Source: Verrucomicrobiia bacterium
GTDB lineage: Bacteria > Verrucomicrobiota > Verrucomicrobiia > Limisphaerales > Pedosphaeraceae
Direction: 5' to 3'
Length of the DNA: 26,385 nt
Assembly (NCBI GenBank): GCA_035653495.1
Contig: DASRBR010000023.1
Coordinates: 1 to 26,385, forward strand
Shown here: positions 4,613 to 25,302 of the stretch, in pieces
Numbering within the stretch: the first letter of the stretch is position 1
How the letters are laid out: the number at the start of each line of letters is the position of its first letter
Program-made: the position numbers and the translations under genes
Notes under the pieces: generated by a model
What the model saw: the letters and a program-made list of their open reading frames with translations, nothing else
The model's database searches: none
What the model was told of the DNA's origin: nothing

Positions 4613-4679
4613 GTTATGGTGGACCAAGCATCAGTTTAAACTGGCCCATCCAAAGAGCAAGGCGATTTGGGTGGAGGAT

Positions 4680-4784
4680 GGTTACAAAGTTACATGGTTA
4701 CAAGGGTTACATGGCCGAAAAAATAGCAACGCTCCCGTTTTGGAACAGCGTCCAATGTAACTTTTAACTATTTGACCATATAAC
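4680..4784. repeat. Two short tandem arrays in opposite orientation in the nifS/ispA divergent gap
   Basis: ggttacaa agttacat ggttacaa gggttacat (4680-4712), then atgtaac ttttaac tatttgac catataac (4755-4784). Confidence 0.65.
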
Positions 4785-4830
4785 GAACAATCCCCTTGCC
4801 TCCGGGCGCAGGTTCTTTTACAAACCGCGC

Positions 4831-5760
4831 ATGTCCGTTGCCAACGCGAAACACAGGAAGACCGCGCCGCAAAAGCCGTTCGATTTGACTGCGTTTCTGG
4901 CCGCCAGCACCGACGCCGTCAACCAGGCGCTTGACCGTTTTCTTCCGCCGGAAACAACCGCGCCCGCAACCATCCACAAGGCGATGCGTTACTCGCTTTT
5001 CGCCGGCGGCAAGCGGATGCGTCCCGCGCTTTGCCTCGCGGCGGCTGCGGCTTGCGGCGGCAAGCAGGCCGATGCCCTGCCGCTCGCCTGCGCGGTCGAA
5101 TGCATCCACACTTATTCGCTCATCCACGACGATTTGCCCGCGATGGACGACGATGATTATCGCCGCGGCAAGCTCACCAATCACAAAGTTTTCGGCGAAG
5201 GCATCGCCGTGCTTGCAGGCGATGCGCTCCTGACGCAGGCGTTCGAAATCGCGGCGCAATGCCGTTCCTGGCCGCGTTATTCGCATCAGGATGTCATCCT
5301 TGAAATCGCGCGCGCGTCCGGTTCGTTGCAGCTTATTGCCGGGCAGGTCGCCGACCTCGAAGGCGAGGGCAAAAAGATTTCCGCGGACCAGCTCAAATAC
5401 ATCCACGAACGCAAAACTTCTGCGTTGCTCTGCTGCTCGGTCAGGTTGGGCGGCATGAGCGCTAATTGCACCGCCGCGCAACTCAAGGCCCTCACCGAAT
5501 TCGGCTACAACGTCGGCCTTGCGTTCCAGATCATCGACGACATCCTCGACGTCACGCAAACGAGCGAGCAACTCGGCAAAACGGCCGGCAAGGACACTGC
5601 CGCCCAAAAAGCCACCTATCCGTCCATCGTCGGCTTGGAAAAATCGCGCAAGATCGCCGGTCAACTCACCAACCGCGCGTTTGCTGCGTTGAAAATATTC
5701 GGCAATCGCGCCGCTGCGCTGCATGGATTGGCGACATTTCTATTGCAGAGAGACAGGTAA
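4831..5760 (+). CDS. ispA: Polyprenyl (FPP/GGPP) synthase
   Basis: 'GGKRMRP', FARM 'SLIHDDLPAMDDDDYRRGK' and SARM 'FQIIDDILD...GKTAGKD'. Confidence 0.93.
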   Translation: MSVANAKHRKTAPQKPFDLTAFLAASTDAVNQALDRFLPPETTAPATIHKAMRYSLFAGGKRMRPALCLAAAAACGGKQADALPLACAVECIHTYSLIHDDLPAMDDDDYRRGKLTNHKVFGEGIAVLAGDALLTQAFEIAAQCRSWPRYSHQDVILEIARASGSLQLIAGQVADLEGEGKKISADQLKYIHERKTSALLCCSVRLGGMSANCTAAQLKALTEFGYNVGLAFQIIDDILDVTQTSEQLGKTAGKDTAAQKATYPSIVGLEKSRKIAGQLTNRAFAALKIFGNRAAALHGLATFLLQRDR

Positions 5761-5787
5761 TGGGGAGCCGGCGGGTAAGATTGGCGT

Positions 5788-6054
5788 GTGAGCATAGAAG
5801 CTTTGAAACGCGAAATTTCTGCTCTGAACGATGAGCAAAGACGGCATCTGGCTGCATTCATTGTATCCCTTCACGATTCGAAGGACCCGCAGTATCGCGA
5901 AAAGCTCACGCAAAAGATCAACAAGCCAGCCTCACAGTTCGCCACCTTGGAAGAGATGGACCGTCGGGTTGAATCTCTGATTACCGTTGCCCGCTCAACA
6001 AATCCCCGAACGCCGGCAGCAATCCATATTTGCGCGTCCAAGGCGTGTACATGA
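5788..6054 (+). CDS. Small hypothetical protein, possibly an addiction-module antitoxin-like component
   Basis: GTG start; helical 'MSIEALKREISALNDEQRRHLAAFIVSL...TLEEMDRR'. The last ~25 codons overlap the convergent hydrolase gene. Confidence 0.45.
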   Translation: MSIEALKREISALNDEQRRHLAAFIVSLHDSKDPQYREKLTQKINKPASQFATLEEMDRRVESLITVARSTNPRTPAAIHICASKACT

Positions 6055-7645
6055 ATCCTTGCACGTTGGACATCGGGCGCACGATTTGCAACCAGCCTTT
6101 CACGTCGTTCAGATTGTCGGCATCGTAATAACACGCGACCAGCACGGGAAAACCTTGCTGCTCGAAAAATTGCAGGCTCTTTTCGCGCGGTGCGCCGCCC
6201 CAAACTGCCATCACCAAATCCTTCGGCACATGCTCCCATGAACCGGTGAAATCACCGTTCACCAGATAATAATTGCCGTGCGCGTTGTGGTTCGGATCGA
6301 ACATGTCCGACCAAACGTAAATTTTTTCATCCGGCAAATATTTGCGGATGATCTGCATCTGTTTGGTGACGCATTCGCCGAGCAACTCGCCCATGTTGCG
6401 CCCGGCGCACGCGCGGCATGTCCCGCCCATCCGCACTTCATCCATGCCCAGCAAAAACTTTTTCGGATGCAGCCGGTCCGCAACGACTTTCATCTCCTGG
6501 CCCATGATTTCGTAAACCTCCGGCTCAGCCATGCAAACCGTCACCTGCCCGTCATTGATGTTTTGCGAATGATACCAGCTCACGCGCAACCGGTCGCCAT
6601 TATGGATGCGCCCGCTCGGAATAATTTTCAGCGGCAATGCGTCGCCGTCCTCGCGCCAAGGCTGCAAATGCGGATCCATCAATGGCGCGTAATCTTTTCC
6701 TTCCGCGTAAGTCGTCGCGCCATCTTCGCTGCGAACAGTGACCGGCGTGCCCGGCCGATGCAACACATTCACCGGCCCAATTTCTTCAACGCGCCAGTCA
6801 TCCAGCCATATTTTTCCCGCCTTGCCGTCCCAAACGCCCGCGTAAAGCAGCACCTTCGCGTTGGTCATGCTGTTGAACATCATCGTGAGCTGACGCCAGT
6901 CGGTGGTGGATGGAAGATTATATTCGCGGGGCGCAAGGTCGCGATCATGGGGCGCAAGCGCGAGCAAACGGAATGCGCCCGTCGGTTGAAATCCTTCCGT
7001 CTTCACCCAAATCGTGACGCGATAACAACGATGCGGATGCACCTTGATTTCCTGCATCACGCGCCCGTGGCCATAAGGATTCGCCGTGAAATGTTCGAGC
7101 CGCAACGACGCAGTGCCGCTGTGCTTGATTTCACGGTCAGCGAAACTGATTTCTCCGGGCTGATCGTGAAAATTAAAACCTTTCAGGTTATTGCCGTTGA
7201 AATCTTCAAAGCCACCGTTTTTCAGCCGAACGGTTTCGTCCGGAACCAATCGCCCCACGCCATCGCGCACAACAAACGGCGCGTCCTCGACGGGCAAGCC
7301 TTCGGCAAGATTCGGATTATGCGCGAGAAAGCAACTGCCATAACCAATGGAAAAACCCGCCGGAATCAATTCAACATGATTGCTCTCGCAAATTTGCTTG
7401 ATCGCATCCAGTCCCCGAAAATATTCCGGCGTTTTCAACGACATCGTGTCAATTCCCGCGGCGAGCACCGCGCCATTGAGGCCGTGTTTTGCGCCCGTCT
7501 CAATCACGTGCGAAATGTCCGTGACATCACTGTCCTTGTTCAGGCCCCAACCAAAAATCCAGACCCAGCGTTCTGGATAAATTTCAGCCGCGTGAATTTT
7601 AAGAAGAAAACAAAAGATGCAGGCAAGAACCAGGCGCGCTTTCAT
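5981..7645 (-). CDS. Secreted GH20-like glycoside hydrolase with an inserted CBM4/9-like module
   Basis: Signal peptide MKARLVLACIFCFLLKIHA; 'LKNGGFE...KHSGTASLRL...YRVTIWVKTE' CBM-like segment; 'FLLGMDEV' acid pair; 'YVWSDMFDPNHNA'. Confidence 0.7.
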   Translation of the reverse strand: MKARLVLACIFCFLLKIHAAEIYPERWVWIFGWGLNKDSDVTDISHVIETGAKHGLNGAVLAAGIDTMSLKTPEYFRGLDAIKQICESNHVELIPAGFSIGYGSCFLAHNPNLAEGLPVEDAPFVVRDGVGRLVPDETVRLKNGGFEDFNGNNLKGFNFHDQPGEISFADREIKHSGTASLRLEHFTANPYGHGRVMQEIKVHPHRCYRVTIWVKTEGFQPTGAFRLLALAPHDRDLAPREYNLPSTTDWRQLTMMFNSMTNAKVLLYAGVWDGKAGKIWLDDWRVEEIGPVNVLHRPGTPVTVRSEDGATTYAEGKDYAPLMDPHLQPWREDGDALPLKIIPSGRIHNGDRLRVSWYHSQNINDGQVTVCMAEPEVYEIMGQEMKVVADRLHPKKFLLGMDEVRMGGTCRACAGRNMGELLGECVTKQMQIIRKYLPDEKIYVWSDMFDPNHNAHGNYYLVNGDFTGSWEHVPKDLVMAVWGGAPREKSLQFFEQQGFPVLVACYYDADNLNDVKGWLQIVRPMSNVQGFMYTPWTRKYGLLPAFGDLLSGQR

Positions 7646-7735
7646 GACCGGATTAAAGGACAATCCGATTCAGTTGTCTATAAATTGAAAGATACTGGGA
7701 ACCTTCATTGTGCCCGGCTGGTGGGCACGCATCCT

Positions 7736-10946: not shown

Positions 10947-11852
10947 TCATGCCGCGGTTCTGGCATCGTCGGCAGCAATTTTCACATCTTGCGTCGCTTG
11001 TTCGGTCGCACGAGCCCGCGCCAGTTTCTGAGCTTCGGCGTCACTGAATGTTCGCAGTCGACCATAAGCCGCACTGAATGCAGCATTAGCATCCGAAGCA
11101 GCATCGCTTGAGGAGCCTGCTTTGGTTAATATATGGCGAATCGGACCTGCCATGTCTAAAAGTATTCTAGCGCATTCAGGAGAAGGGGGGGATGTGTAGG
11201 CAAGCTGAACAAGCGCGGAATAGTGCCTTGCTAAATCATTAAGCGCAACAGGATGGATTGATCCTACGGATCCGCCCCGCTCAACCGCGTTATGTGTGCG
11301 TCGGGAGAGAAGGACTAGCTCCTCCAACATATCCATTTCTGAACGTTTTGGTTCACTATTAGGTCGGCTGTCCGTCTTCAAGATAGCAAAAACCTCCGTC
11401 TCGAGCTTGGGCCACCACATTTCAAAAACGCTCTCCAGAACTGCCGGATCGAGTCCGGAATCACCCAACCCGGCATTAATCGATTTTAATAATTTACGAA
11501 TTTCTTCTTTCGAAAATGAGCTGCATTGAAACTGCTCTAGAGGACCTTTAACATCTGTCGGAGAAATCCCAAAGAGAAGAGGGCAAACTCGGGCAGAATC
11601 TAACTGTTTCGAAATTGCGCCTGCTTCAAAAATAATCCACGGAGCTGTTAGGTTTTCCAACGTAAGAATAAAAATTCCAACCTTGGAATCAGAGAGTTCT
11701 TTCGCAATTTCAGTCGCCCACCTTGCGCCTTTCGCTATATCGTCAGGTGTAAAGTATGGTCTCACGGCTTGAATTACTCCGGGGATCCATTTGCGAAATA
11801 TCTCTGCGATTTTCTTGCTTCTTTCGCCCGACCAACTAATAAATACCTTCAT
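10947..11852 (-). CDS. TIR-domain protein (TIR_2-like) with a helical C-terminal extension
   Basis: 'KVFISWS', 'DIAKGARWATEIAKEL' and 'PWIIFEAGA' (WxxxE catalytic motif). AAGGA RBS upstream; visibly AT-richer than its neighbours. Confidence 0.88.
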   Translation of the reverse strand: MKVFISWSGERSKKIAEIFRKWIPGVIQAVRPYFTPDDIAKGARWATEIAKELSDSKVGIFILTLENLTAPWIIFEAGAISKQLDSARVCPLLFGISPTDVKGPLEQFQCSSFSKEEIRKLLKSINAGLGDSGLDPAVLESVFEMWWPKLETEVFAILKTDSRPNSEPKRSEMDMLEELVLLSRRTHNAVERGGSVGSIHPVALNDLARHYSALVQLAYTSPPSPECARILLDMAGPIRHILTKAGSSSDAASDANAAFSAAYGRLRTFSDAEAQKLARARATEQATQDVKIAADDARTAA

Positions 11853-13085: not shown

Positions 13086-13526
13086 TCAGACCGAATCGAA
13101 CAGGTTGAATTCAAGCCAGTAGGACTTCACGGCTTGGACAAGTTCACGTAGCCGATCTGTCGTAGAAGGTTTGACGAGGTAAGAATTGGCGCCAAGCCGA
13201 TAAGCCTGATGCAAGTCTGAAGGCTCCTGGGATGAAGTGAGGATGACCACCACCACACTGCGCAAATGTTCCTGCTCGCGCAACCATGCAAGGACGTCCA
13301 AGCCTTTCTTTCCGGGCATTTTGAGGTCAAGGAACATCAGCGCCGGAATAGGAAACATCGTTCGATCACTGAATTGCGCCCTGCCGGCGAGATAATCGAC
13401 GGCTTTCAACCCATCTTCAGCGACAAAGATGGGATTGGGCAACGCAGCCTCTTTGAGGGCGCGTCGCATGAGGAAAACGTCATCCTCGCTATCATCTACC
13501 AAAAGAATTGGCTTAGTGGGTCGCAT
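13086..13526 (-). CDS. Single-domain response regulator (Rcp1/CheY-like)
   Basis: 'ILLVDDSEDD', phospho-acceptor 'FLDLKMP', 'ILTSS' and 'GANSYLVKP'. Confidence 0.93.
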   Translation of the reverse strand: MRPTKPILLVDDSEDDVFLMRRALKEAALPNPIFVAEDGLKAVDYLAGRAQFSDRTMFPIPALMFLDLKMPGKKGLDVLAWLREQEHLRSVVVVILTSSQEPSDLHQAYRLGANSYLVKPSTTDRLRELVQAVKSYWLEFNLFDSV

Positions 13527-14706
13527 TTGCTTTTTTGAGACTCAACCAGAAGCGGCTCCCTTTGCCAACCTCCGAAGTCAGGCCGACGGAGCCGCCCATC
13601 CGTTCGGCGGCTTTGCGCACGATGGCAAGGCCGATTCCCGTGCCTTCGTACTGTTTGTCCGAGTGGACGCGACCGAATATTTGGAAGATTTCCTGAAAGT
13701 GTTCGGGCGCTATGCCGATGCCATTGTCCTCGAACCAGATTTTGACATTATCCGTATTCGGGTCTTCCTCCGCGCGAATTGTGACGAGGGGAGGCACATC
13801 AGGCCGCGCAAATTTCAGCCCATTGCCCAGCAGATTGGAGACGCACTGAATAAGATAGGCCGGGTGTGCGCGGACGACCGGCAAAGGCTCCTTGACGATG
13901 ATCGAGCCGTTTCGGAATTGTGGATAGGTTTCAACCGCTTCTTGTACCAGCTTGGCAAGATTGACATCCTGAAGGTGGATTTCGCCTTTGGCGATCCGGC
14001 TGTAAGCGAGGACATCCTGGACCAGAAGATCCAAACGGGCAGCGGCGGCGCTGATTTTCGCGAGAAACACTTTTCCTCCCGCGTCCAGTTTCGCGCCGTA
14101 GTCATCCGCGAGTGCGCGGGCATAACCCTCGATAGCGCGAAGTGGGGCGCGCAAGTCGTGAGACACGGTGTAGGAAAACGCTTCGAGTTCACTGACGGTT
14201 TCCTGAAGTTTCTGTGTGCGTTCACGCACGCGCATCTCCAAGTCCTGATTGGCGCTTTCGAGCTCCCGATGCGCCTGGGTGAGCTGCAGCAGAGTATCAC
14301 GAATCTGATATTGCTGCCGGCGATGGCGCAGGGCCGCTTCCACCACGCTTCGCAGTGTCACAAAGCGGACCGGCCGCTCTATGAGGGTCACATTGAGCAT
14401 CTGCGCGGCGGAAAGGCGGCCTGAGTTCTGCCCAGAATGGACAAGGACAATCAATGGAAAGTTCGACCATGAAGGTTCCTGGCGCAAGGTGGCGGCCAGG
14501 CATTGCTCCCGATCCTGAAGAATGGCTTCTTCAGTAAGCAGGGCGGCGCCAGCTCCTCTGGCAATCTCGCGGCAAAGCGCCGGAAGGTCAGGGCAGGCAA
14601 GGCAATGGAAGTTTGCATCTGACAGAAAAGCAATGGTCCTTTCGGAGTCTTTACGTGTTGGCATTAGCACCAGCACGCGCTCCCGCTGGGCTGTTTCGTC
14701 ATTCAT
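13513..14706 (-). CDS. Cytoplasmic histidine kinase with an N-terminal degenerate receiver-like domain
   Basis: H-box 'VSHDLRAPLRAI', 'NLLGNGLKF', 'DNGIGI' and 'GTGIGLA'. No TM segment; the N-terminal REC-like fold lacks the acidic pocket. Confidence 0.9.
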   Translation of the reverse strand: MNDETAQRERVLVLMPTRKDSERTIAFLSDANFHCLACPDLPALCREIARGAGAALLTEEAILQDREQCLAATLRQEPSWSNFPLIVLVHSGQNSGRLSAAQMLNVTLIERPVRFVTLRSVVEAALRHRRQQYQIRDTLLQLTQAHRELESANQDLEMRVRERTQKLQETVSELEAFSYTVSHDLRAPLRAIEGYARALADDYGAKLDAGGKVFLAKISAAAARLDLLVQDVLAYSRIAKGEIHLQDVNLAKLVQEAVETYPQFRNGSIIVKEPLPVVRAHPAYLIQCVSNLLGNGLKFARPDVPPLVTIRAEEDPNTDNVKIWFEDNGIGIAPEHFQEIFQIFGRVHSDKQYEGTGIGLAIVRKAAERMGGSVGLTSEVGKGSRFWLSLKKANATH

Positions 14707-16199
14707 CGGTGTTCAGTTTCCATCGCAGTGGAACCGCGGTATTCCGGCACACCGGTCATGATGCCGAAGAAGCCTTTGAGAGGCTCACCAACTTTTATCC
14801 CGTCCTCTTGAATGACTAATTGCCGGATCGAACGTTCGTGCTTGCCGGTCCGTTTCTTGAGGATGCTGATGGCCTGCTTGATCTCCGCCTCGGCCTCGAA
14901 ATAGCGCAACAATAAAACAGTATCGGCCAAATAGCTGACATCGATATCACTGGCCCGGCCCGCGGCTGTGAGCATCAGACCGTGCTGGGCGACAATCAGG
15001 ATAGTGGTGACGCCTTTCTGGTTGAGGTAAGCAAACATCTCGTGAAGGTGGGAGGTGAGAAAGCGTTCCTCCGGCATGGCATTGAGATAGCCATTCAGGC
15101 TGTCAATGACGATCACCTTTGCGCCGGCATCGACGGCTCTCCGAACTTCGTGGGAGAATGCGCCTGCGGACATTTCCGCAGGATCAATCTGCTGCGCGTG
15201 AAGTTTGCCCTCCTTGATGTAGGCGCGGACACCTCCTTCTTTGGCCAGGCAAAGCTTCTCCGTGCGCTCAATCATCGTTCCCAAGACTTCATCAAAAACA
15301 TATACGGCGCCTTTGTGTCCACGCTTAAGGGCTGAGACGACGAACTGCATGGCGACAGTGGATTTACCCACTCCGGCGGGGCCGAGCAGAAGGGTCGTCG
15401 TGCCGGCCGACAGTCCGCCGTTGAGCATCTCGTCCAGGTGAGGAATGCCACTGGCAGTGACGTCCTGCGAGAAGCGGTCGTGATGTTCCGCGGCAACCAA
15501 GCGCGGATGAACAAGTATGCCGCCCTGGACGATTTCATAATCGTGATAACCTTCGCGGAAGTCGGCGCCACGAACCTTGGTTACGAACAGCCGACGGCGC
15601 GAGCGGCCATAGTTGGGCAAAATGCGTTCGAGAATAAGGTTGCCCCCCACGAGACTTTCCGGCTGGATCGCACCCATTTGAAATGTTCGATCGTCAAGGG
15701 CCACAACAGTGATGTCACGGTCACTAAAGTAGCCCTTGAGTGAAAGGAGTTGCCGCCGGTAACGCAGGGGGTCACCCGCCAGGAGACGTAGTTCAGAAAG
15801 ACCATCGAAAACAACGTGTTTCGGCTGCACCTTGTCCACTTCCGCGATGATCGCCTGAGTGGTCTCACCAAGCTCCGTTTCCGATGGATGAAAAACGGAA
15901 ACCTCGGGTTGCCCGGCGAGGTTGCCTGCCGAGCGAGACAGGTCGCAGACGTGAATGCCGTCGAGGTTCCACTGATGGCTGGCGGCGGCATTTTTGAGGT
16001 CAGCGTGAGTTTCAGTAAGCGACACATACAGGACTTTTTCATTCGCGGCGGCGCGGGCAAGTGAGTACTGCAATGCCATGGTCGTCTTGCCAGCTCCTGG
16101 ATCACCCTGAATAAGATAGAAACCGCCTCGGACCAATCCGCCCAGCAGAATATTATCCAGTCCTACGATGCCAGTCGAGATTTTCGTTAGGTTACTCAT
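14703..16199 (-). CDS. Double-domain KaiC-like ATPase
   Basis: Two P-loops (GDPGAGKT and GPAGVGKS), 'VVFDGLSE' and 'IVIDSLNG' Walker B, Arg fingers 'TKVRG' and 'LKKRTG', and 'VSYLADTVLLLRY' at the KaiC phosphosite position. Confidence 0.9.
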   Translation of the reverse strand: MSNLTKISTGIVGLDNILLGGLVRGGFYLIQGDPGAGKTTMALQYSLARAAANEKVLYVSLTETHADLKNAAASHQWNLDGIHVCDLSRSAGNLAGQPEVSVFHPSETELGETTQAIIAEVDKVQPKHVVFDGLSELRLLAGDPLRYRRQLLSLKGYFSDRDITVVALDDRTFQMGAIQPESLVGGNLILERILPNYGRSRRRLFVTKVRGADFREGYHDYEIVQGGILVHPRLVAAEHHDRFSQDVTASGIPHLDEMLNGGLSAGTTTLLLGPAGVGKSTVAMQFVVSALKRGHKGAVYVFDEVLGTMIERTEKLCLAKEGGVRAYIKEGKLHAQQIDPAEMSAGAFSHEVRRAVDAGAKVIVIDSLNGYLNAMPEERFLTSHLHEMFAYLNQKGVTTILIVAQHGLMLTAAGRASDIDVSYLADTVLLLRYFEAEAEIKQAISILKKRTGKHERSIRQLVIQEDGIKVGEPLKGFFGIMTGVPEYRGSTAMETEHR

Positions 16200-16444: not shown

Positions 16445-16966
16445 ATGAAAGAAATGCGTTTTTCTGATTTTGTCAAACGCGCCGGTCCTCCGAAAACCGC
16501 CTCGCTTTGGACCGACCCAGCGAAGGACAAGGAATTCATGAGAGCGGTGAAGGAAAACCGCGTGTTGACGATTGTCCGCGACCCGCATGGGAAGCACAAG
16601 GATTTCGGCGAGATCGGTTTTCACGAGCAGCCGCTGGCGTTGTACATGATTTTCCCAAAGCCGTTGCCAAAGAAAACCGACGCGCGCGTCATCGGCGTGA
16701 AATACGATTTGATCGAAGAGCCCGAAGTCAAAAATCCGGTGCGCAATGTGAAGCCGCAGTCGCCGAAATCAGCCGCTCCAAAACAAATTGAAAACGAATA
16801 CAAAGTCGTCATCCGACGCACCGCAACCACCACATTCACTCTCGATTTAACTGCAAAGAACGAGCGCGAAGCGAAAAAGCAGGCGTTGGCAGCGGTCAAG
16901 GAGCAATCGTTCGAATTGAACAACGCGAAAATCGAGAACGAGATTCAGTCCGTCAGGAAAACTTGA
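16445..16966 (+). CDS. Hypothetical protein
   Basis: 173-aa ORF with host-like codon usage filling the gap; no motif recognised with confidence. Confidence 0.7.
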   Translation: MKEMRFSDFVKRAGPPKTASLWTDPAKDKEFMRAVKENRVLTIVRDPHGKHKDFGEIGFHEQPLALYMIFPKPLPKKTDARVIGVKYDLIEEPEVKNPVRNVKPQSPKSAAPKQIENEYKVVIRRTATTTFTLDLTAKNEREAKKQALAAVKEQSFELNNAKIENEIQSVRKT

Positions 16967-16982
16967 GCCATGCATTCCCGTG

Positions 16983-17050
16983 CAGGCGACGGGAAAGTCG
17001 CCTGAACCCACAGGCTGGCAAGTCGCGCCACGTAGCGCAGACATTCTTGT
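16983..17050. repeat. REP-like unit(s)
   Basis: Hairpin caggcgac-gggaaa-gtcgcctg (16983-17004) and a back-to-back CCAC|GTAG junction at 17028-17035. Confidence 0.5.
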
Positions 17051-17112
17051 TGCTTTGTTAAAAGCATATTTGCCCGTTGTAAAAAAGATGGAGCTGTCGC
17101 GGGAAAGTTTTC

Positions 17113-17198
17113 TTTGGAGTGCGCGGACATGTCCGCGCTTTGGGACCGGGCGACATGTCGCCCGGAAGAAAAGCGGTGTCATGCCACCGCACTCCAAA
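17113..17198. repeat. 86-bp palindromic element with terminal inverted repeats and three CATG-centred palindromes
   Basis: tttggagtgcg ... cgcactccaaa (11-bp IR); gcgcggacatgtccgcgc (17121-17138); ccgggcgacatgtcgcccgg (17146-17165); gcggtg-tcatgc-caccgc (17173-17190). Confidence 0.85.
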
Positions 17199-17274
17199 AT
17201 CGCCGTAACACGATTTTTCGACCGCTGACAAATCAGATTGAACCTTTTGCCCGCGAGCGGCACTTATACTGTGA

Positions 17275-17847
17275 ATGGCCGAGGCCCCGAGTTGTTCCGC
17301 CCAAAAACGTGCGGATTCCTTCGATGTCCAGGAGTTCCTTGACTCCCATGGAGATCGTCTGCTCCGTTCCGCTTATCTGCTGTGCGGCGATGAAACCGAA
17401 GCGCAAGATTTGGTCCAGGAAACATTCATGCAGGCAATCAAGTCCTGGCGCAGATTTCGTGGAGAGGCGGCGACTTATACCTGGCTTCATGGAATCCTGC
17501 GCAACTTGTGCCGCCGGCATCAACGCAAACAAAAACGCATTGTTTACGATGAGGAATTGGTTCTGAAGGAAACCTGCCAGGCTGACCATCCCAGCGGTCT
17601 GGACCAGGATTTCTGCGCGACCAGACTCACGCAGGCCCTACGGCAACTTTCCCACGAACATCGAGAAGTCATTGTCCTCCGGTTTTATGAACGGATGAAA
17701 ATTGAGGAAATCGCGCGCCAGCAGGGCGTTTCCAGTGGCACGGTTAAATCGCGCCTGCATTATGCCCTGCGTTGTCTCGGACAATTGATCCCGCGCGAAA
17801 TGAACTTTTTTGCCGCCAGTGGCACTCATTCCATGGAGACGCGATGA
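17275..17847 (+). CDS. ECF RNA polymerase sigma factor
   Basis: Region 2 'EAQDLVQETFMQA...TWLHGILRN'; region 4 'REVIVLRFYERMKIEEIA...GTVKSRLHYA'. Confidence 0.93.
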   Translation: MAEAPSCSAQKRADSFDVQEFLDSHGDRLLRSAYLLCGDETEAQDLVQETFMQAIKSWRRFRGEAATYTWLHGILRNLCRRHQRKQKRIVYDEELVLKETCQADHPSGLDQDFCATRLTQALRQLSHEHREVIVLRFYERMKIEEIARQQGVSSGTVKSRLHYALRCLGQLIPREMNFFAASGTHSMETR

Positions 17848-18432: not shown

Positions 18433-19383
18433 ATGAAACCAAACATACGCGCACTCCATCTAATCTTTGCCGCGACTTTCGTAGCCATGTTCCTGGTCTA
18501 CTTCTCCCGCTTGGGCGCTAATGGCGCCGATGAACCAGTCGATCCGAAGTTTTCGTATGTTATTCCGCATGAATTGGGAGCCAGTGGATTTTTTGCCGGG
18601 GATCAAATCACCATCACCGAGGTGCGCGGAGATAAAAAACACATTGAACCTGGTGGCAGCTATCTGGTGGAAGGGACTTACACGCTGGCTTCGGCAGACA
18701 GCGCGGATCTTGCGCTTTTCTGCACCAGCCGCGGCCCCAGCGGTCCCACGCCAGTCCAGGCCGGGCAAACCGTTAAAATAAGCCGGGGAACGGGAAAATT
18801 TCATCTATACGAAACGAATGTTCCTGGCGGCTGGCTGCACGTTTCCTTTTATGCGAACAATTCCAGCCATGGCGGGGTCTATTTTGGAGAAAAGGACAGG
18901 GAAAATACCATCATGCGAAACCAGGGATGGTTTCATAACGTTGGTGACAAACAGCACGAGACCGAGACTGGTCCCGAAAACAAAGCCAACCTTGCCTTGA
19001 TGGCTTATCTTGGCCATCCCGTGCCGCCGCCGTCTGACATGGACGCGCGCTATGACAAGGAGAATCTGCTCAAGGCCTTCACCGCATTGTGCAGGAACGC
19101 AAATTTGGTCATCACCAAACTCGCGGTGGACGATTCGGAATTTCCTTTCCTGGTCTATGGCACGTTGGAGGGAATACATTCATTGCCGGAGAAATCAGCG
19201 TTTGAGGAGCAAAAAGGCTACACCTATGGCGGTTCGGTGAGAGGAAGCGATGGCGAAGGAACCTACTTCGCGGTGAACATGGTTCCTTCGGACAAGTATC
19301 CAGAAGGCCAGCAGAAAGCCTGTCAACGACGATTGATGCTCCGTCTTCAGATGCTGGCCGATAAAGCCCAGCAGGCGCAATGA
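18433..19383 (+). CDS. Exported or membrane-anchored hypothetical protein, third gene of the ECF operon
   Basis: 316 aa with an N-terminal hydrophobic segment; starts 7 nt after the anti-sigma stop. Confidence 0.75.
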   Translation: MKPNIRALHLIFAATFVAMFLVYFSRLGANGADEPVDPKFSYVIPHELGASGFFAGDQITITEVRGDKKHIEPGGSYLVEGTYTLASADSADLALFCTSRGPSGPTPVQAGQTVKISRGTGKFHLYETNVPGGWLHVSFYANNSSHGGVYFGEKDRENTIMRNQGWFHNVGDKQHETETGPENKANLALMAYLGHPVPPPSDMDARYDKENLLKAFTALCRNANLVITKLAVDDSEFPFLVYGTLEGIHSLPEKSAFEEQKGYTYGGSVRGSDGEGTYFAVNMVPSDKYPEGQQKACQRRLMLRLQMLADKAQQAQ

Positions 19384-19405
19384 GGTCGGCTTTTGAGCGA
19401 ACGCT

Positions 19406-21652
19406 TTAATTCGCCTTGAGCACTTGGTCGATGGCGGAGCGAAATTCAACCAGCGTAAACGGCTTGGACAGACAGACCTTGTTGCGCGCGCGGAGAAATT
19501 CCTGCACCTTTTCATTCACCACGTCGCCGGTGATGAAGATGATCCGCTTGGACATTTCCGGGTTGCTGGCATGCAACCGTTCATAAATCTGCTGGCCGCT
19601 GAGCCCCGGCATTTTCCAATCGCATAAGGCAAGGTCGTAATGATATTGCGTGAGGCGGCGCAGCGCGGATTCACCGTCATGGGCAATATCCACCTTGTAA
19701 CCGTTGCGCGTGAGGATTTCGCGCACCATTTGCAGAATCAAATCTTCATCGTCCACGACCAGCACGCGTTTGCCCAGGCCCTCCTCGGCATTGTCATTTG
19801 CGGACGGCGCGGCTTTCTTTTCAGCCACCTGCGGCAACTGATGAGTGATGGGCAGTTCGACGACGAATGTCGCGCCTTCGCCGTATGTGCTGTAAGGCGT
19901 GATGGTGCCGCCATGTTCGCTGATGATGCCGTAGCAAAGGCTTAACCCAAGCCCGGTGCCCTTGCCGACTTCCTTCGTGGTGAAAAACGGATTGAAGATG
20001 CGCTTCAGGTTTTCCGGCGGGATGCCCGGCCCGTTGTCCTGGAAGATGATGCGCACATAGTTTTCGACCGCTTCACTCGAAACGCGTAACCGGCCCGCAA
20101 CCGGCCGGCCTTCCATCGCCTGCCTAGCGTTGTTGATGATGTTCAAAAAAACCTGCTGCATCTGGTGCGGGTCCAATTCTGTCGCGGGCAGGTGTGGATC
20201 AAGCTGCGTCACCACCTCGATGTTGCTGGTGCGCATCTGGTATTGCAAAATCTCGATGGCGGACTCCACGATTTCATTCACGCAAACCACCTTGCGCTCG
20301 GGCGCATGACGCCGCGCGAAGCTCAACAAGCTCTGCACAATCTTCTGGCAACGCTTGGCGCTCTTGAAAATCACGTCCAGATAACGCCGCTGCTGTTCCG
20401 GCAAATCCGATTGCTGGAGCAGTTCGGAAAAACCCATCACTGACGTGAGTGGATTGTTCAATTCATGCGCCACGCCCGCGACGAATTCGCCGATGCCGGA
20501 TAATTTTTCGCTCTGGATCAACTGATGCTGGGTTGACTTGAGCGTCTCGACCGTCTTTTCCAGTTCATCGCGCGAGTTCTTGACGTTCTGGGTCATCTTG
20601 TTGAAGGCAGTCGCGAGTTCGCCGCATTCATCACGCGAAAACACCTCCACGCGCCGCGAATAATCGCCACGGCCGACCGCTTCCGCGCAATTGCGCAAAT
20701 GGCGCAACGGCCAGGTGATGCGCCGCAACAAAAGCCAGACGATCACTCCGCTGATGCCGATGCCGAGAACGCCGGCTGCCAGCAGCATCTGTTGCGTCGC
20801 GCGCAAGGCGATCCAGGAATCCTCGTAGGACGAAAGCAGCAGATAACCCATCGCTTTGTCGCCGTTCAGCGAGGAGAAATGTCCGGCGCGGCAAAGGTAA
20901 TGTTCATCATTCAACATCAGTTCCGGGCCGGCGGCATCATTTGCGGTCAATGCGTTGAACCGATCGATGAAAACCGGGAACAAACCAGCGTCTTTGATGC
21001 TGGATGCCGCCACATGGCCGTCGGCTATCAGCACAATCTGGCTGCGCGTGATCTGGCGGGTTTCGAGCGCCTGCTCCGACCCGATGCGCAGCCCAAACGT
21101 CAGCACGCCGGCGATGTCATCGCCCGTTCCGACCGGAAAGGAAGCGATGTCCAGCAGGTTGGTTCCCACGCGGATGGTGTCCACGGCGGCATTGCCTTGC
21201 GCGGCGCGTGCGATGGTTGGCATGGCCTTCGCCTGAAAATTGCTGACGTTCAGTTCGATGTTTGCGTTCGAACTGACCAACTGCGGCTCGTCCTGTTTGA
21301 GCAGCGTGAACACGGCCACATTGGCTTCGTTGTCCAGGAGCATTTCCTGCATGACTTCATCGAGCGTGTGCTTGATGGTCGGGAGGTCGGCGCTTTGCGT
21401 GACGGCTTTTATCCGCGGCTCATTAAGGGCGTTGCGATTCTTGGAGAGCAAGGTTGCGGTCTGATGCAGGTGCAGTTGCTTGAAAATCACGTCCGCAGTC
21501 GCGAGCTGGCTGGCGGCATTTTGATGCATCTGCTCGCTGATGCGGGCATCCACCAGCCAGATGGTCACCGCCATGAGCAGCATCATGACCGTGAGCACCG
21601 GCAACAGCACTTTCAACTGGAAACTGAAGCGTATTTTGGAAATGGCTTTCAT
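19406..21652 (-). CDS. Membrane hybrid sensor kinase (TM, periplasmic sensor, TM, HAMP, HisKA, HATPase, REC)
   Basis: Two TM segments, HAMP 'ITWPLRHL...RDECGELATAFNKM', 'VAHELNNPL', 'DNGPGI', 'PFFTTK', 'GTGLGL', and REC 'VVDDE...CDWKMP'. Confidence 0.94.
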   Translation of the reverse strand: MKAISKIRFSFQLKVLLPVLTVMMLLMAVTIWLVDARISEQMHQNAASQLATADVIFKQLHLHQTATLLSKNRNALNEPRIKAVTQSADLPTIKHTLDEVMQEMLLDNEANVAVFTLLKQDEPQLVSSNANIELNVSNFQAKAMPTIARAAQGNAAVDTIRVGTNLLDIASFPVGTGDDIAGVLTFGLRIGSEQALETRQITRSQIVLIADGHVAASSIKDAGLFPVFIDRFNALTANDAAGPELMLNDEHYLCRAGHFSSLNGDKAMGYLLLSSYEDSWIALRATQQMLLAAGVLGIGISGVIVWLLLRRITWPLRHLRNCAEAVGRGDYSRRVEVFSRDECGELATAFNKMTQNVKNSRDELEKTVETLKSTQHQLIQSEKLSGIGEFVAGVAHELNNPLTSVMGFSELLQQSDLPEQQRRYLDVIFKSAKRCQKIVQSLLSFARRHAPERKVVCVNEIVESAIEILQYQMRTSNIEVVTQLDPHLPATELDPHQMQQVFLNIINNARQAMEGRPVAGRLRVSSEAVENYVRIIFQDNGPGIPPENLKRIFNPFFTTKEVGKGTGLGLSLCYGIISEHGGTITPYSTYGEGATFVVELPITHQLPQVAEKKAAPSANDNAEEGLGKRVLVVDDEDLILQMVREILTRNGYKVDIAHDGESALRRLTQYHYDLALCDWKMPGLSGQQIYERLHASNPEMSKRIIFITGDVVNEKVQEFLRARNKVCLSKPFTLVEFRSAIDQVLKAN

Positions 21653-21656
21653 CGAC

Positions 21657-22490
21657 TTACAATTTCGGCAGACCGGTGATGCCGAGGGTGAAGTCCGCCT
21701 TCACCTCGCCCTTTTCCGGCACGACGATCTCCCGGCTTTGCGCGGGCAACCGCTCGTGCCAGGCTTTCAAATGGTAAGTGCCCGCAGGGACGTCTTTGAT
21801 CGTATAAACGTCCTTGCTGTCGGTGCGGGCGAAATAAGGATTTTCCAAAACCAGCACCACGCAGCTCATGCTTGAATGAATGGAGCAAAAGACATCCACG
21901 CGCCCCGGCTTGTCGAAAAGCACCTTCTTCACCGTGGGCGCCTTGTATAGATCAAGATCAAACGGCTTCACTTCCGAATACGAGAAAACGTTGTGATAAA
22001 TGTCATCGTTGTTCGGCCATTCGACTGTCGTGCCCACAACAATCGGCATGATATGCGGTTCGAACGTCGCGTGCTTTTGGTTCACCTGCCGGACGGTCAA
22101 CACCTGCACCGGCTTGCCGGGCGCGACCAGCTTGTTCGTGCCGACCGGCCCTTCGATATAAACGATGAAATCATGCATCGCGCCGTAATCCACGCGCGTG
22201 GCGAACTTGAGCGCGCGGCTCTCGTAATTCACGCTGCCGCATTGCGCGTCCTGTGCCGCACCCGCCTTTCCTTCGGCATGAACGCGACCCGTGATGGTTC
22301 CCGCATGGGCAGTAGTCAGTGTTAATGCAGTAAAAAAGCCAAAAAGTAATTTAGAGATTTTGCCCGCATAGTGGCGTGGTAGGGACGGCGCGCTGCGCCG
22401 TCCGCGGATCCCGCATGCGGGACAGCGCGATGTCCCTACCTTGGATAGGAACATTGAAGGCAGTCTTGAAAATGTAGTTGAATTTTTCAT
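21657..22490 (-). CDS. Exported cupredoxin-domain protein with a C-terminal beta-sandwich (CarboxypepD_reg-like)
   Basis: h-region/cleavage 'LLFGFFTALTLTTAHA|G'; type-1 Cu ligand pattern 'HNVFS' ... 'CSIHSSM'; 'VPAGTYHLKAWHERL'. Confidence 0.82.
   Translation of the reverse strand: MKNSTTFSRLPSMFLSKVGTSRCPACGIRGRRSAPSLPRHYAGKISKLLFGFFTALTLTTAHAGTITGRVHAEGKAGAAQDAQCGSVNYESRALKFATRVDYGAMHDFIVYIEGPVGTNKLVAPGKPVQVLTVRQVNQKHATFEPHIMPIVVGTTVEWPNNDDIYHNVFSYSEVKPFDLDLYKAPTVKKVLFDKPGRVDVFCSIHSSMSCVVLVLENPYFARTDSKDVYTIKDVPAGTYHLKAWHERLPAQSREIVVPEKGEVKADFTLGITGLPKL
22378..22440. repeat. 63-bp REP-doublet (REPIN-like) palindrome inside the cupredoxin ORF
   Basis: ggtagggac ... gtccctacc (9-bp IR carrying GTAG); inner stems ggacggcgc-gct-gcgccgtcc (22383-22403) and tcccgcatgcggga (22409-22422). 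Confidence 0.85.
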
Positions 22491-22492
22491 GG

Positions 22493-23869
22493 TCAGAATT
22501 TGAATGCCGCCTCGAGGGCGAATTGGTTTTCTTCGTCGCGGAAAGTGCCGTCAATTTCGCTGCCCTGGTTGAAGCTGTATTCGCCCTTGACGACCATGTT
22601 CTGGCTGAACCGGTAACCGAGGCCCAAACTCAATCGCCAATAATCCTTCGTGAGTTCCTGAAAGCCATATTCCGCCATGTTGCCCGCGCCCACGATGGTG
22701 TAGCCCTTGTGCGCGAGCACCTGGCTCCAGCGCACCGCCGAATACAAACTGTGCGTCCAATCGTGCGTGGCTTCGAGATAGTAATAGTAGATGTCGCGAT
22801 TGTTGTTCGCGAGCGGGTCGTTATCGTTGTAATTCACGTAACCGCCCGCAGCCCTGATCAACGTGGACGGCAGCCGAAACACCGCGTCGCCTTCGACCAA
22901 ATTGGCATGAAAGGAAGTCGTGCTGTGTGAACCGATGGAATGAAACCAGCCGTTGCCGAACCAGATCGCCGACGTTCCATTTTTTACGTTCAACTCGCCG
23001 GTGCGCATCGCGCTTGCGCTCACGTGCAGCCATTTGGTTGGGTCGGCCCCGATTCTACCCGAAACACTTTTGTCGCCTTGCAACGACTGGCTGGTGACCT
23101 CGCCGCCGTTTTGCACCGCCACCGCGTAATGCGCCGGGCCGAGCTTGCCGTAAATCTCCACTCCATCGTCCGTGCCCCAGATATCGCTCACCGAATGCGA
23201 GATGAGCGGGTTGTCGATCGCGAAGCGGTATTGGTACTCCTCGCCGAACGGAATGTAAAAACGCCCCGCGCGCGCGTTGAGCATCTCTTCGTTGCCCCAA
23301 AGCTTGGAAATGCTTTCGAAATCCAGGTAAAGCTCGCCGACGTTCAACGCCAGGCTTGTGGTTTCGCGTTGGGCAAGGTCCAGTTCCGAATAAAAATAAA
23401 TGTCGCCCCAGATGGGCGCATCCAAAAACAAACGCGCTTCATCGATCCGAAACGTGCTGTGCGGAAACTGGCCTGACGGAGGCGACTTGAAAAACGCCAC
23501 ACCACCTTCGCCGCCGATGTCCAGCTTGCCGAAATGGAAAGTCGAACTGCTGGTCGTGTCCGGCAAAGGCTGTTCCTCCGGCCTCGTAGAAGCCGCTGTT
23601 TGCGGCGAAGGGTTGCCCGTCGTTTGAGCGTTCCTTGATTCCAGGGCCGAAACCTTCTTGCTGAGCGATTCGATGGTTTGTTGCTGCTGCTGCACCTGCT
23701 GCTGCAACTGCTGGTTCTGCTGCAAGAGTTGAAGGAATTCCTTGCGCGTCATGGGAGCCGAATCGGCGTCTTCCCTTGCCAGCGCGAATGGCCCGGGAAG
23801 AACCAGAAGAGCGAATGCACAACCCAGCAGGGCCGTTCGCTTGTATGGCATTCCCATCATATATGCCAT
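22493..23869 (-). CDS. Outer-membrane beta-barrel/porin (OprO/P-like) with an N-terminal coiled coil
   Basis: Signal peptide '...KRTALLGCAFALLVLPGPFALA', Gln-rich coiled coil, amphipathic strands, 'AGRFYIPFG', and terminal '...AAFKF'. Start lies among Mets at 23869-23851. Confidence 0.8.
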   Translation of the reverse strand: MAYMMGMPYKRTALLGCAFALLVLPGPFALAREDADSAPMTRKEFLQLLQQNQQLQQQVQQQQQTIESLSKKVSALESRNAQTTGNPSPQTAASTRPEEQPLPDTTSSSTFHFGKLDIGGEGGVAFFKSPPSGQFPHSTFRIDEARLFLDAPIWGDIYFYSELDLAQRETTSLALNVGELYLDFESISKLWGNEEMLNARAGRFYIPFGEEYQYRFAIDNPLISHSVSDIWGTDDGVEIYGKLGPAHYAVAVQNGGEVTSQSLQGDKSVSGRIGADPTKWLHVSASAMRTGELNVKNGTSAIWFGNGWFHSIGSHSTTSFHANLVEGDAVFRLPSTLIRAAGGYVNYNDNDPLANNNRDIYYYYLEATHDWTHSLYSAVRWSQVLAHKGYTIVGAGNMAEYGFQELTKDYWRLSLGLGYRFSQNMVVKGEYSFNQGSEIDGTFRDEENQFALEAAFKF

Positions 23870-24105
23870 TGAGCAACAACCATGCCCGCCCGCTCTGGTG
23901 GAAGCGTTCCCAACCTGAAAAAATCGCCGCGAAAAGTCCTCCAAATTTTCCGCCCAATTCTGTCCATCAATCGGTCATTGTGCGGCGTGTCCCGGACAAA
24001 ACTCTGGCACTTTGGCGGCGCTCTGATTCAATTGCCCACAATCAGGACAGTTGTTCCGGCGCAAGAGGCGTTGGAACCGCTGCCGATGACTGCCAAAATT
24101 TTTGC

Positions 24106-25302
24106 ATGCGGGTTCCAAAATCATACTTCGCGCTGACACTATATTGTTTGTGCCCGCTGACCGGCGTTCTCGCGCAGGAATTGACATCGGCCGAAACCCA
24201 AGCCTTGCGCTCCGCGCCGCAAGGCAGCGTGCTGACTTTAAGCAACATCTGGTCGCATCAACGCGATTTGCCGCGGATTCCGCTCGAAATCAGCGATGTC
24301 CATGGCCCGCAATTGCTGCTCTCCGATAAACCGGAGTATTTCCAGACCGGCAATGGCATTTCGCTGCAGGAAGAAGCCAAACCGGGTCTGGTGCGCCTTT
24401 ACATCTATCATGTCCCGCAGCCGGACGCCGGGCCAAAAACCATTTCCGCCGTCATTCAAAATCTTGGCAAACATCCCTTGAAGTTCCGGTTCCTTCGCCG
24501 CGCTTTTCCCAAACCCAGCCGCGACTATCATCTTATCGGCAAGACCGGCCTCATCCAATTTTTCGATTCGCATCCCGATAAAACATTTCGGCGGATCCCG
24601 CCCGGCGGCCGGATGGTCATTGATCCGGACATGGACGCCACCACCGTCACAACCGATGAACTCGTTCACGGCCTTTATGAATTCAAGATCAATCAACCGG
24701 CGCGCATCAGCGTTTTCGAACGCGACCCTGGCCAATCGAGCATCGCCGTTCTCGATCAACTTCCCAAACTGCCGCGCGATTTGCCCGGCTACGAAGGCTC
24801 CGGCGCAGGACGCGGATTGTTTTTGACCAGCGATTATGACGTCAGCGGCGAAAATGGTTTTGCGATCGACACCATCAACGGCCCGATGCGCCTGTTGCTG
24901 GCAGACGGCAGAAAAGATGCATGGGTCCGCGGACGCGACAGCATCGCCGGTCTTGAGGATGGCAGGGACAGCGGCAATTACGGTGTCATTTACCGCGTGC
25001 GCCTGAAATATCGTTCCGGCGACGGACGCGGCCTCGCGTTATTCATCACCAAGCCGGGTCGCGGCGGCAGATGGTGCGGCGGACAGGCCGGCGCGGTGAA
25101 GGTCAGCCGCGGAACATGGCCGGAAGGAACCGTCGCCGTTCCAACTGGCCGCGTCGCTTTTGGAAATCCCGGCGAAATGGTGTTCATCCAAAAATTTCCG
25201 CCCTTGCGCAAAGGAAAAACCGGCACATTGGAAATCGTCTATTCACCCCCCGGCGCATCCTGCATCCCCACACCCATGCTGCTGGTGCCCTTTCAGCCTT
25301 GA
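24106..25302 (+). CDS. Secreted uncharacterised protein resembling the C-terminal domain of Firmicutes proteins often labelled 'copper amine oxidase'
   Basis: Start moved to ATG 24106 (signal MRVPKSYFALTLYCLCPLTGVLA); motifs 'LLLSDKPEY', 'RLYIYH', 'GRGLF', 'GNYGVIY' and 'YSPPGAS' recalled from that family. Confidence 0.65.
   Translation: MRVPKSYFALTLYCLCPLTGVLAQELTSAETQALRSAPQGSVLTLSNIWSHQRDLPRIPLEISDVHGPQLLLSDKPEYFQTGNGISLQEEAKPGLVRLYIYHVPQPDAGPKTISAVIQNLGKHPLKFRFLRRAFPKPSRDYHLIGKTGLIQFFDSHPDKTFRRIPPGGRMVIDPDMDATTVTTDELVHGLYEFKINQPARISVFERDPGQSSIAVLDQLPKLPRDLPGYEGSGAGRGLFLTSDYDVSGENGFAIDTINGPMRLLLADGRKDAWVRGRDSIAGLEDGRDSGNYGVIYRVRLKYRSGDGRGLALFITKPGRGGRWCGGQAGAVKVSRGTWPEGTVAVPTGRVAFGNPGEMVFIQKFPPLRKGKTGTLEIVYSPPGASCIPTPMLLVPFQP

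Follow-up and report, generated by a model that had tools for sequence, protein, structure and literature searches.

A predicted type-1 copper protein encoded between a porin-like barrel and a sensor kinase: a candidate envelope-spanning sensory module

What does a blue copper protein do when it is encoded between a porin and a sensor kinase? This question is raised by three adjacent genes from a Verrucomicrobiia bacterium of the family Pedosphaeraceae (assembly GCA_035653495.1, contig DASRBR010000023.1, positions 1 to 26,385; this whole stretch of 26,385 nucleotides is referred to as the window). The genes encode a predicted outer-membrane barrel, an exported protein with a cupredoxin domain and a membrane-bound hybrid histidine kinase. 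We favour, with about even confidence, the reading that the three genes form one dedicated envelope-spanning sensory module in which the copper protein acts as a periplasmic co-sensor. The evidence comes from the sequences of the three proteins, from structural models of the barrel and the copper protein, and from the company that the genes keep in other genomes.

The copper protein was predicted to consist of a cupredoxin domain followed by a small beta-sandwich (Table 1). Residues 136-210 barely reached the Pfam cut-off for Copper-bind (PF00127; 21.5 bits vs 21.2), and residues 219-269 matched CarboxypepD_reg and fn3_3 (PF13620 and PF14686), both under the cut-off. The structural model has a mean predicted local distance difference test (pLDDT) score of 81.4, with blocks of 94-98 across residues 131-270 and of 97-98 over residues 131-230. 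In Foldseek searches the cupredoxin core was superposed on amicyanin with a root-mean-square deviation of 1.7 Å over 85 columns (1.7-2.2 Å for most amicyanin entries), and further matches were plastocyanin, pseudoazurin and the C-terminal cupredoxin of Thermus NirK; amicyanin, plastocyanin and pseudoazurin were all matched at probability 1.00. A profile search of PDB sequences returned the C-terminal cupredoxin of NirK (9cck at 1.9e-9), 5fc9 and then amicyanins, while the C-terminal part retrieved the sandwiches of NOMO and EMC7. Ahead of the cupredoxin domain lie a strand at residues 64-73 and a conserved loop of low confidence around Tyr89. This N-terminal strand may complete the C-terminal sandwich, and the mature protein probably starts at Gly64 (position 22301 downwards).

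The copper site itself is strictly kept. His166, Cys202, His205 and Met208 are invariant in 14 close sequences. In a set of 30 distant representatives, no variation was seen at His166 or Cys202, and at least 90% of the sequences have His205 and Met208. In the 94 cupredoxins of the loci surveyed below, Cys202, His205 and Met208 were found in 94 and His166 in 93, so that 93 of the 94 carry all four. With its fold, its ligand set and a score above the Pfam cut-off, the domain has the features of a type-1 cupredoxin, and copper binding is predicted. An identity as amicyanin or as a methylamine-utilisation protein was considered and rejected, as TIGR02657 scored 20.5 bits against an equivalog cut-off of 110.2 and no mau genes are present in the window. 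The label 'methylamine utilization protein' is only an automatic Atlas cluster name and is unsupported; a cluster look-up of 10 distant representatives gave no informative names.

The barrel protein has a single N-terminal signal-like hydrophobic segment at residues 12-32. Its AlphaFold2 model (mean pLDDT 86.7) is a closed barrel with 18 DSSP strand segments, preceded by a Gln-rich helix predicted to form a periplasmic coiled coil, with block pLDDT values of 88-94 over residues 41-80 that drop to 60 at residues 81-90. The best Foldseek matches were the Acinetobacter baumannii porin DcaP (6eus), Vibrio OmpT, Omp32 and OprP/OprO, with E values of 7e-13 to 2e-11 and sequence identities of 9-15%. 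Normalised to the target, the TM-scores against these 16-stranded porins were 0.57-0.73, for a model with 18 DSSP segments. No Pfam or NCBIfam family was reached at its cut-off: the best Pfam match was OMP_b-brl (18.3 bits vs 28.7), and the sole NCBIfam row, the TraB equivalog (29.1 bits vs 504), fell on residues 67-134 of the longest open reading frame (ORF), which is the Gln-rich coiled-coil stretch. In its modelled fold the barrel resembles a DcaP-type porin; by sequence it lies outside the curated families. DcaP is itself a porin with an N-terminal periplasmic coiled coil, as predicted here, and the barrel differs from DcaP and the 16-stranded trimeric porins in its 18 modelled strand segments and in the lack of a sequence-family match.

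The third protein is, from its sequence, a dCache_3-HAMP-HisKA-HATPase-REC hybrid kinase with two membrane segments around its sensor. Every domain passed its Pfam cut-off: dCache_3 at residues 51-224 (26.9 bits vs 25.7), HAMP (41.9 vs 25), HisKA (76.2 vs 26.9), HATPase_c (91.2 vs 26.4) and REC (83.7 vs 30.2). Hydrophobic segments at about residues 9-39 and 287-313 bracket some 250 residues that are predicted to be periplasmic. An earlier note on this DNA had proposed three co-oriented genes for a barrel, an exported cupredoxin and a membrane kinase, with a complete His...Cys-x2-His-x2-Met ligand set in the second and a periplasmic sensor of about 250 residues, HAMP and REC in the third. All of these elements were recovered where the note had placed them.

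Further analysis was directed at the genomic neighbourhood of cupredoxin homologues. The family is large: sequences clustered at 90% identity gave 2,887 matches at E ≤ 1e-3, and clustering at 50% identity gave 10,482 representatives at the same threshold, 4,448 of which also reached E ≤ 1e-10. When one genome per species was scanned with a sequence pattern, 588 relatives were confirmed, and the best 80 loci were analysed. One of these (L085) had no cupredoxin ORF in the ORF set, leaving 79 loci: 49 close ones (L009-L057), in records mostly titled Verrucomicrobia, and 30 others, titled Omnitrophota, Acidobacteria, KSB1, Eisenbacteria, Gemmatimonadales, Ignavibacteria, Latescibacteria, Gammaproteobacteria and others. 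Loci with doubtful bin labels (L012, L015, L021, L026, L032, L050, L065, L080 and L081; labelled Methylomirabilota, Bifidobacteriaceae, Saccharimonadales, Patescibacteria etc., with cupredoxins 47-61% identical to that of the window) were kept out of phylum claims.

All 49 close loci show the order barrel, cupredoxin, sensor; one of them, L056, stems from a record that names an isolate, Puniceicoccaceae bacterium K14. A sensor profile made from the window together with 33 close relatives (loci L009-L056) revealed a sensor homologue adjoining the cupredoxin in 29 of the 30 distant loci; the exception, L073, is a contig of 2,151 nucleotides (nt) whose end falls in the barrel gene. For the barrel, a profile of the window and the 50 loci matched by BLAST (L009-L057 and L059) detected a neighbour in 16 of the 30 at E < 1e-3 and in 23 after one iteration, never more than one per locus. 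The gene order in these 30 loci was barrel-cupredoxin-sensor in 14, cupredoxin-barrel-sensor in 4, cupredoxin-sensor-barrel in 4, cupredoxin-barrel in 1 and cupredoxin-sensor without a barrel in 7. From such counts, chance is excluded as an explanation of the triad. Fusions of the Rosetta-stone type were also sought among the 14 long members of the cupredoxin family, which are mostly tandem duplications of the cupredoxin module, and no clean fusion to the barrel or the sensor was found. One candidate, P0249 (503 aa), holds a barrel end, a cupredoxin part and a sensor start in one frame and was set aside as most likely a read-through, gene-calling or assembly artefact.

The genes that flank the triad are unrelated between loci, and a fourth conserved gene was rejected for this reason. 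At the loci scanned, neither copper-homeostasis nor oxidase genes were seen in the flanks. The sole recurrence is a gene for a GSDH-type dehydrogenase (pyrroloquinoline quinone-dependent glucose/sorbosone dehydrogenase), which directly follows the sensor in the same orientation at L012, L013, L015, L019 and L024; these make up 5 of the 21 downstream (+2) genes that were scanned in the 49 close loci. Because such periplasmic dehydrogenases need an electron acceptor, this gene may hint at the reductant of the copper protein. The neighbourhood survey had been suggested by the earlier note, which described triads of barrel, cupredoxin and HAMP-type signalling protein in other phyla with swappable outputs; this claim was upheld. 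The note also saw no evident catabolic electron-transfer role, which fits the differing flanks, and the oxidase, amine dehydrogenase and copper-efflux genes that it had missed beside the triad are absent from the whole window.

An even sample of the phylum gave a similar picture. In 150 other genomes, the cupredoxin was found in nine at E ≤ 1e-10 and was concentrated in one family (6 of 8 genomes). These nine genomes contain 13 cupredoxin places, at 12 of which a sensor homologue adjoins and at 8 a barrel; the place without a sensor (L102) is on a contig of 4,401 nt.

The exclusivity of the association was examined in five genomes (G000, which is that of the window, G012, G060, G108 and G117). 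Each of the seven strong matches to the barrel (E ≤ 4e-42) has a cupredoxin gene as its neighbour, and two weak ones (4e-8 and 1e-7) lie elsewhere. This restriction of strong homologues to cupredoxin genes suggests that the barrel is a dedicated partner and not a general porin. The sensor domain behaves alike, with nine of nine matches at E ≤ 1e-5 beside a cupredoxin gene. The same genomes hold 10 cupredoxin genes at E ≤ 1e-10, nine of which each have their own adjacent sensor, including those in genomes with two or three copies. The remaining gene, L089:3437-4189 on contig C527 of the genome that also holds the window, encodes a paralogue that is 32% identical over 145 columns, with all four ligands and the same two-domain build. 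It lies directly upstream of ctaA, a UbiA-type ctaB and COX1 (cluster 3437-7729) with no barrel or sensor nearby, and no subunit II gene was found up to the contig end. This paralogue is likely an electron donor or assembly factor for the haem-copper oxidase, and the wider cupredoxin family is therefore not purely sensory.

Behind the dCache_3-like/HAMP input, the cytoplasmic output was found to differ between loci, with at least six output types. One of these is the HisKA-HATPase-REC form of the window itself. A PAS-HisKA-HATPase-REC output is present at L039, L041, L049 and L055-L057. A plain kinase is followed by a sigma-54 activator at, for example, L062, L064, L067, L074 and L075, and one long frame covers both at L061 and L076. 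Other receptors carry HAMP-GGDEF-HD (L087), HAMP-Pkinase, a Ser/Thr kinase (L088), or HAMP with a class III nucleotide cyclase (L094 and L098-L101). A variable output behind a conserved input is the pattern expected if the barrel and the cupredoxin belong to the signal input.

The gene content, folds and ligand set observed here thus come with a tight and exclusive genomic coupling and with swapped outputs. One sensor per cupredoxin, the exclusive company of sensor and barrel in the five genomes, a shuffled gene order with constant content and the exchange of outputs would together be expected of a barrel and a copper protein on the input side of the receptor, and they argue for one module. 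In such a module, a barrel resembling trimeric porins, with its periplasmic coiled coil, would be made for this system only. The exported type-1 copper protein, with its cupredoxin and small beta-sandwich, would serve as the periplasmic co-sensor, and the membrane receptor would read its state through the dCache_3-like periplasmic domain and HAMP. The receptor would pass that state on to whichever cytoplasmic output it carries, here a hybrid histidine kinase. A mechanism of this general kind, with a barrel that admits or presents a signal, a copper protein that reads it and a relay to the kinase sensor domain, had been proposed in the earlier note and is plausible. The signal would be whether the copper protein holds Cu(I) or Cu(II), a redox state governed by a redox-active solute that comes in through the barrel or by the periplasmic electron-carrier pool. 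Given the strict type-1 site, the lack of copper-homeostasis genes among the neighbours scanned and the oxidase-linked paralogue, we infer that this redox state is the most likely signal. A broader proposal can be put forward tentatively: that blue copper proteins are signal-reading receptor subunits in many phyla, their copper state being set by an outside solute through a dedicated porin or by the carrier pool, read by a dCache_3-like domain and routed to kinases, cyclic-nucleotide enzymes and Ser/Thr kinases. It would be the first signalling role for a cupredoxin, and we regard it as possible rather than probable.

Several points weigh against a three-part sensory module. The barrel was undetected by profile in 7 of the 30 distant loci, of which L058 and L078 are cut by contig ends and L071, L083, L086, L087 and L088 are not, and it was undetected at 5 of the 13 places of the phylum sample (one on a short contig and four linked to a cyclase). 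The module may thus do without the barrel or have another component in its place. At two of the cyclase-linked loci (L100:5246-6352 and L101:5395-6282) the gene upstream of the cupredoxin encodes a protein of 295-368 aa without a family, the two being 23% identical to each other (E 1.5e-6). Their matches to the barrel profile were marginal, with full-sequence E values of 1.6e-4 and 0.016 when seven ORFs were searched. One of the two has a terminal Phe, as is seen in outer-membrane proteins, and the pair may represent a smaller replacement barrel. The locus counts describe the best 80 of the 588 confirmed matches. In those 80 loci His166, together with Asn160 and Asp162, is conserved because the search pattern required it, which leaves Cys202, His205 and Met208 as the independent ligands there. 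Moreover, co-inheritance of an operon can by itself yield all the co-occurrence counts. The contact of the copper protein with the sensor domain or the barrel, its copper binding and the nature of its signal are points that we infer. Finally, given the oxidase-linked paralogue, the default job of the family may be electron transfer.

This last point leads to a reading in which the barrel and the copper protein are a metabolic pair, forming an electron-transfer or uptake route for an outside substrate by the logic of Cyc2-rusticyanin, and the sensor merely controls expression via its own small ligand in the Cache-like domain. The conservation of a complete type-1 site, the paralogue in a cytochrome-oxidase cluster and the GSDH gene directly downstream in 5 of the 21 genes scanned all speak for it. 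We nevertheless consider it unlikely. A CxxCH haem motif was sought in the barrel, the cupredoxin and the kinase and found in none of the three, and no oxidase or reductase is conserved among the neighbours scanned. Nucleotide cyclase, GGDEF-HD and Ser/Thr kinase outputs would be unusual for dedicated operon regulators, and in the five genomes the sensor domain occurs only beside cupredoxins.

The module could also report copper availability, with a copper protein that toggles between empty and loaded, a barrel that admits copper and a receptor that signals the periplasmic copper supply. The varied global outputs are unlike a metal-homeostasis circuit, and the scan of the neighbours turned up no gene of the CopA, Cus, multicopper-oxidase or CopC/D kind, which makes this idea quite improbable even though the ligand set is that of a high-affinity copper site. 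Two precedents favour it. A porin-like protein in copper transit has been reported for Rhizobium etli, in the part of the source that was available. The available part of a report on the Myxococcus xanthus CorSR/curA cluster describes a copper-responsive, periplasm-facing HAMP kinase, a sigma-54 response regulator and an exported cupredoxin-type protein (PMC3707914), and the Acidobacteria-titled loci here also carry a sigma-54 regulator. However, the protein of that copper-resistance cluster is a His-rich member of another family (Cupredoxin_1), a multicopper oxidase and a CopA ATPase are encoded with it, and within that part of the text no barrel or dCache_3-like sensor is reported (PMC3707914).

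The copper site might instead be purely structural, the coiled coil, the copper protein and the sensor bridging both membranes and reporting their spacing or damage. One component per envelope layer and a predicted periplasmic helix of 43 residues on the barrel would suit such an arrangement. YfiBNR and Rcs are precedents for outer-membrane partners in signalling. This sensing of the envelope state is very unlikely, since a structural role has no need of a strictly kept, redox-competent ligand set, and the barrel is missing from several loci. Adjacency without any functional link, for which only the general caveat that neighbours need not interact can be cited, is contradicted by the conservation and exclusivity counts and can practically be dismissed.

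If the three genes form a sensory module, it would join several systems in which a membrane kinase depends on a separate protein in the periplasm. LuxP-LuxQ and TorT-TorS are kinases that signal through such a periplasmic partner. As far as the available parts of the sources describe them, CpxP-CpxA, ExoR-ExoS, DbfQ-DbfS and PlrP-PlrS likewise have a separately encoded periplasmic co-sensor beside a membrane kinase. In contrast to all of these, the partner here is a metalloprotein of the cupredoxin fold, a third part lies in the outer membrane, the output types are many and none of the accessory parts is homologous. YfiBNR, with the outer-membrane YfiB, the periplasmic YfiR and the HAMP-GGDEF protein YfiN, has one part per envelope layer. 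Like HbpS-SenS-SenR of Streptomyces, it is a three-part design in which a redox-sensitive accessory protein controls a membrane receptor. These two systems also lack homology to the triad: YfiB is a lipoprotein of the Pal type and no barrel porin, neither YfiR nor HbpS is a cupredoxin, and their redox response runs via disulfides or haem in place of copper. Amicyanin, plastocyanin and pseudoazurin share with the copper protein the cupredoxin fold, the His...Cys-x2-His-x2-Met set and a short loop of the amicyanin type. They differ from it in that the window protein adds the CarboxypepD_reg-like sandwich and the conserved N-terminal strand; moreover, unlike amicyanin, it is genomically coupled to a receptor and a barrel and not to a redox enzyme, with no methylamine dehydrogenase genes nearby.

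The conserved, exclusive pairing of accessory protein with receptor that is expected of accessory-protein-type sensing was found in the locus survey, the phylum sample and the five genomes. We rate the triad as a new form of accessory-protein-dependent sensing. No description of it was found in full-text literature searches, whose coverage leaves out most subscription journals. A paper on MauG of Bacteroides fragilis (PMC11402942) was set aside as, in the part available, unrelated to the triad.

Textbooks describe cupredoxins as electron carriers. If they also had a conserved role as partners of receptors, the known uses of the fold would widen, and a new means of sensing periplasmic redox poise would emerge. 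Little is understood about bacterial sensing of redox conditions in the periplasm, in distinction from the quinone pool or the cytoplasm, and the triad is a concrete and widespread candidate. Once the signal of the module is known, many receptors with at least six output types would be annotated, among them those of soil lineages whose signalling systems have seldom been studied (records titled Verrucomicrobia, Acidobacteria, Gemmatimonadales, Omnitrophota and others). As the barrel and the copper protein are both without a curated family, two unannotated families and their partner are also defined.

Table 1. Coordinates in the window of the three genes, their domains and the inverted repeat
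Feature	Coordinates	Strand	Remarks
Barrel gene	22493..23869	(-)	458 aa from ATG at 23869; longest ORF 22493..23944 starts with TTG at 23944
Periplasmic N-terminal coiled coil of barrel, Gln-rich (predicted)	23618..23746	(-)	residues 42-84, single 43-residue helix in model
Cupredoxin/beta-sandwich gene	21657..22490	(-)	277-aa frame as read
Inverted repeat, 63 nt	22378..22440		30-nt arms, 77% complementary; codes residues ~15-40 of cupredoxin frame
Type-1 copper cupredoxin domain (predicted)	21846..22103	(-)	~residues 130-215; His166, Cys202, His205, Met208
C-terminal CarboxypepD_reg-like beta-sandwich (predicted)	21681..21836	(-)	residues 219-270; Pfam sub-cut-off, PDB profile matches, model strands
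Hybrid sensor histidine kinase gene	19406..21652	(-)	748 aa
Periplasmic sensor region, dCache_3-like (predicted)	20789..21547	(-)	~residues 36-288 of kinase
HAMP domain	20579..20734	(-)	residues 307-358 of kinase
C-terminal receiver (REC)	19430..19765	(-)	residues 630-741 of kinase

The junctions between the genes are short. The stop codon of the barrel and the start of the cupredoxin frame read TGA-cc-ATG, and those of the cupredoxin and the kinase TAA-gtcg-ATG, so that the gaps of 2 nt and 4 nt proposed in the earlier note can both be read in the sequence. The first depends on a frame that runs through a dispersed repeat. This GC-rich inverted repeat follows the stop codon of the barrel and precedes the signal peptide of the cupredoxin, whose frame continues through it. 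Its core motif occurs three times in the window vs 0.04 expected, and elsewhere in the 4.4-Mb assembly 36 places match the cupredoxin frame in its N-terminal part alone (residues 3-94, mostly about 15-42), which points to a dispersed element like a repetitive extragenic palindrome (REP) or a miniature inverted-repeat transposable element (MITE). Cupredoxin homologues are about 232 aa long and start just ahead of the signal peptide, compared with the 277-aa frame here, and no in-frame ATG, GTG or TTG can be read between codon 13 and the signal peptide. Either the repeat is translated or an unusual start is used, and the true start is therefore uncertain. In relatives (e.g. L009, L010, L011, L013, L015 and L017), the ORF coordinates show anything from a 4-nt overlap to a gap of about 10 nt when both junctions are considered, the gap between barrel and cupredoxin reaching a few nt, and the operon reading is thus unaffected by the repeat.

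Scans of positions 19100-24300 for promoters and terminators stayed at chance level, with one promoter-like site vs 2.5 expected and nine terminator-like sites vs 7.6 expected. Among the sequencing-run matches listed for the stretch there was no RNA run, and the best were soil-metagenome DNA contigs. The genes nearest to the triad in the window specify an extracytoplasmic function (ECF) sigma factor and a zf-HC2 anti-sigma factor, along with proteins that have no family. At 16847-17600, upstream of the ECF sigma gene, several short ORFs overlap on both strands and resemble translated repeats more than genes.

Two further observations concern other parts of the window. The gene at 10947-11852 (-) is possibly a defence gene; its product of 301 aa carries a TIR_2 domain at the N-terminus (E 3.9e-7), followed by a C-terminal half without a family. 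At 13513-16199 (-), a gene for a KaiC-family double ATPase (498 aa) overlaps by 4 nt the gene for a HisKA-HATPase kinase (397 aa) with no recognised sensor domain, a pair of the type known from non-cyanobacterial timing or stress systems.

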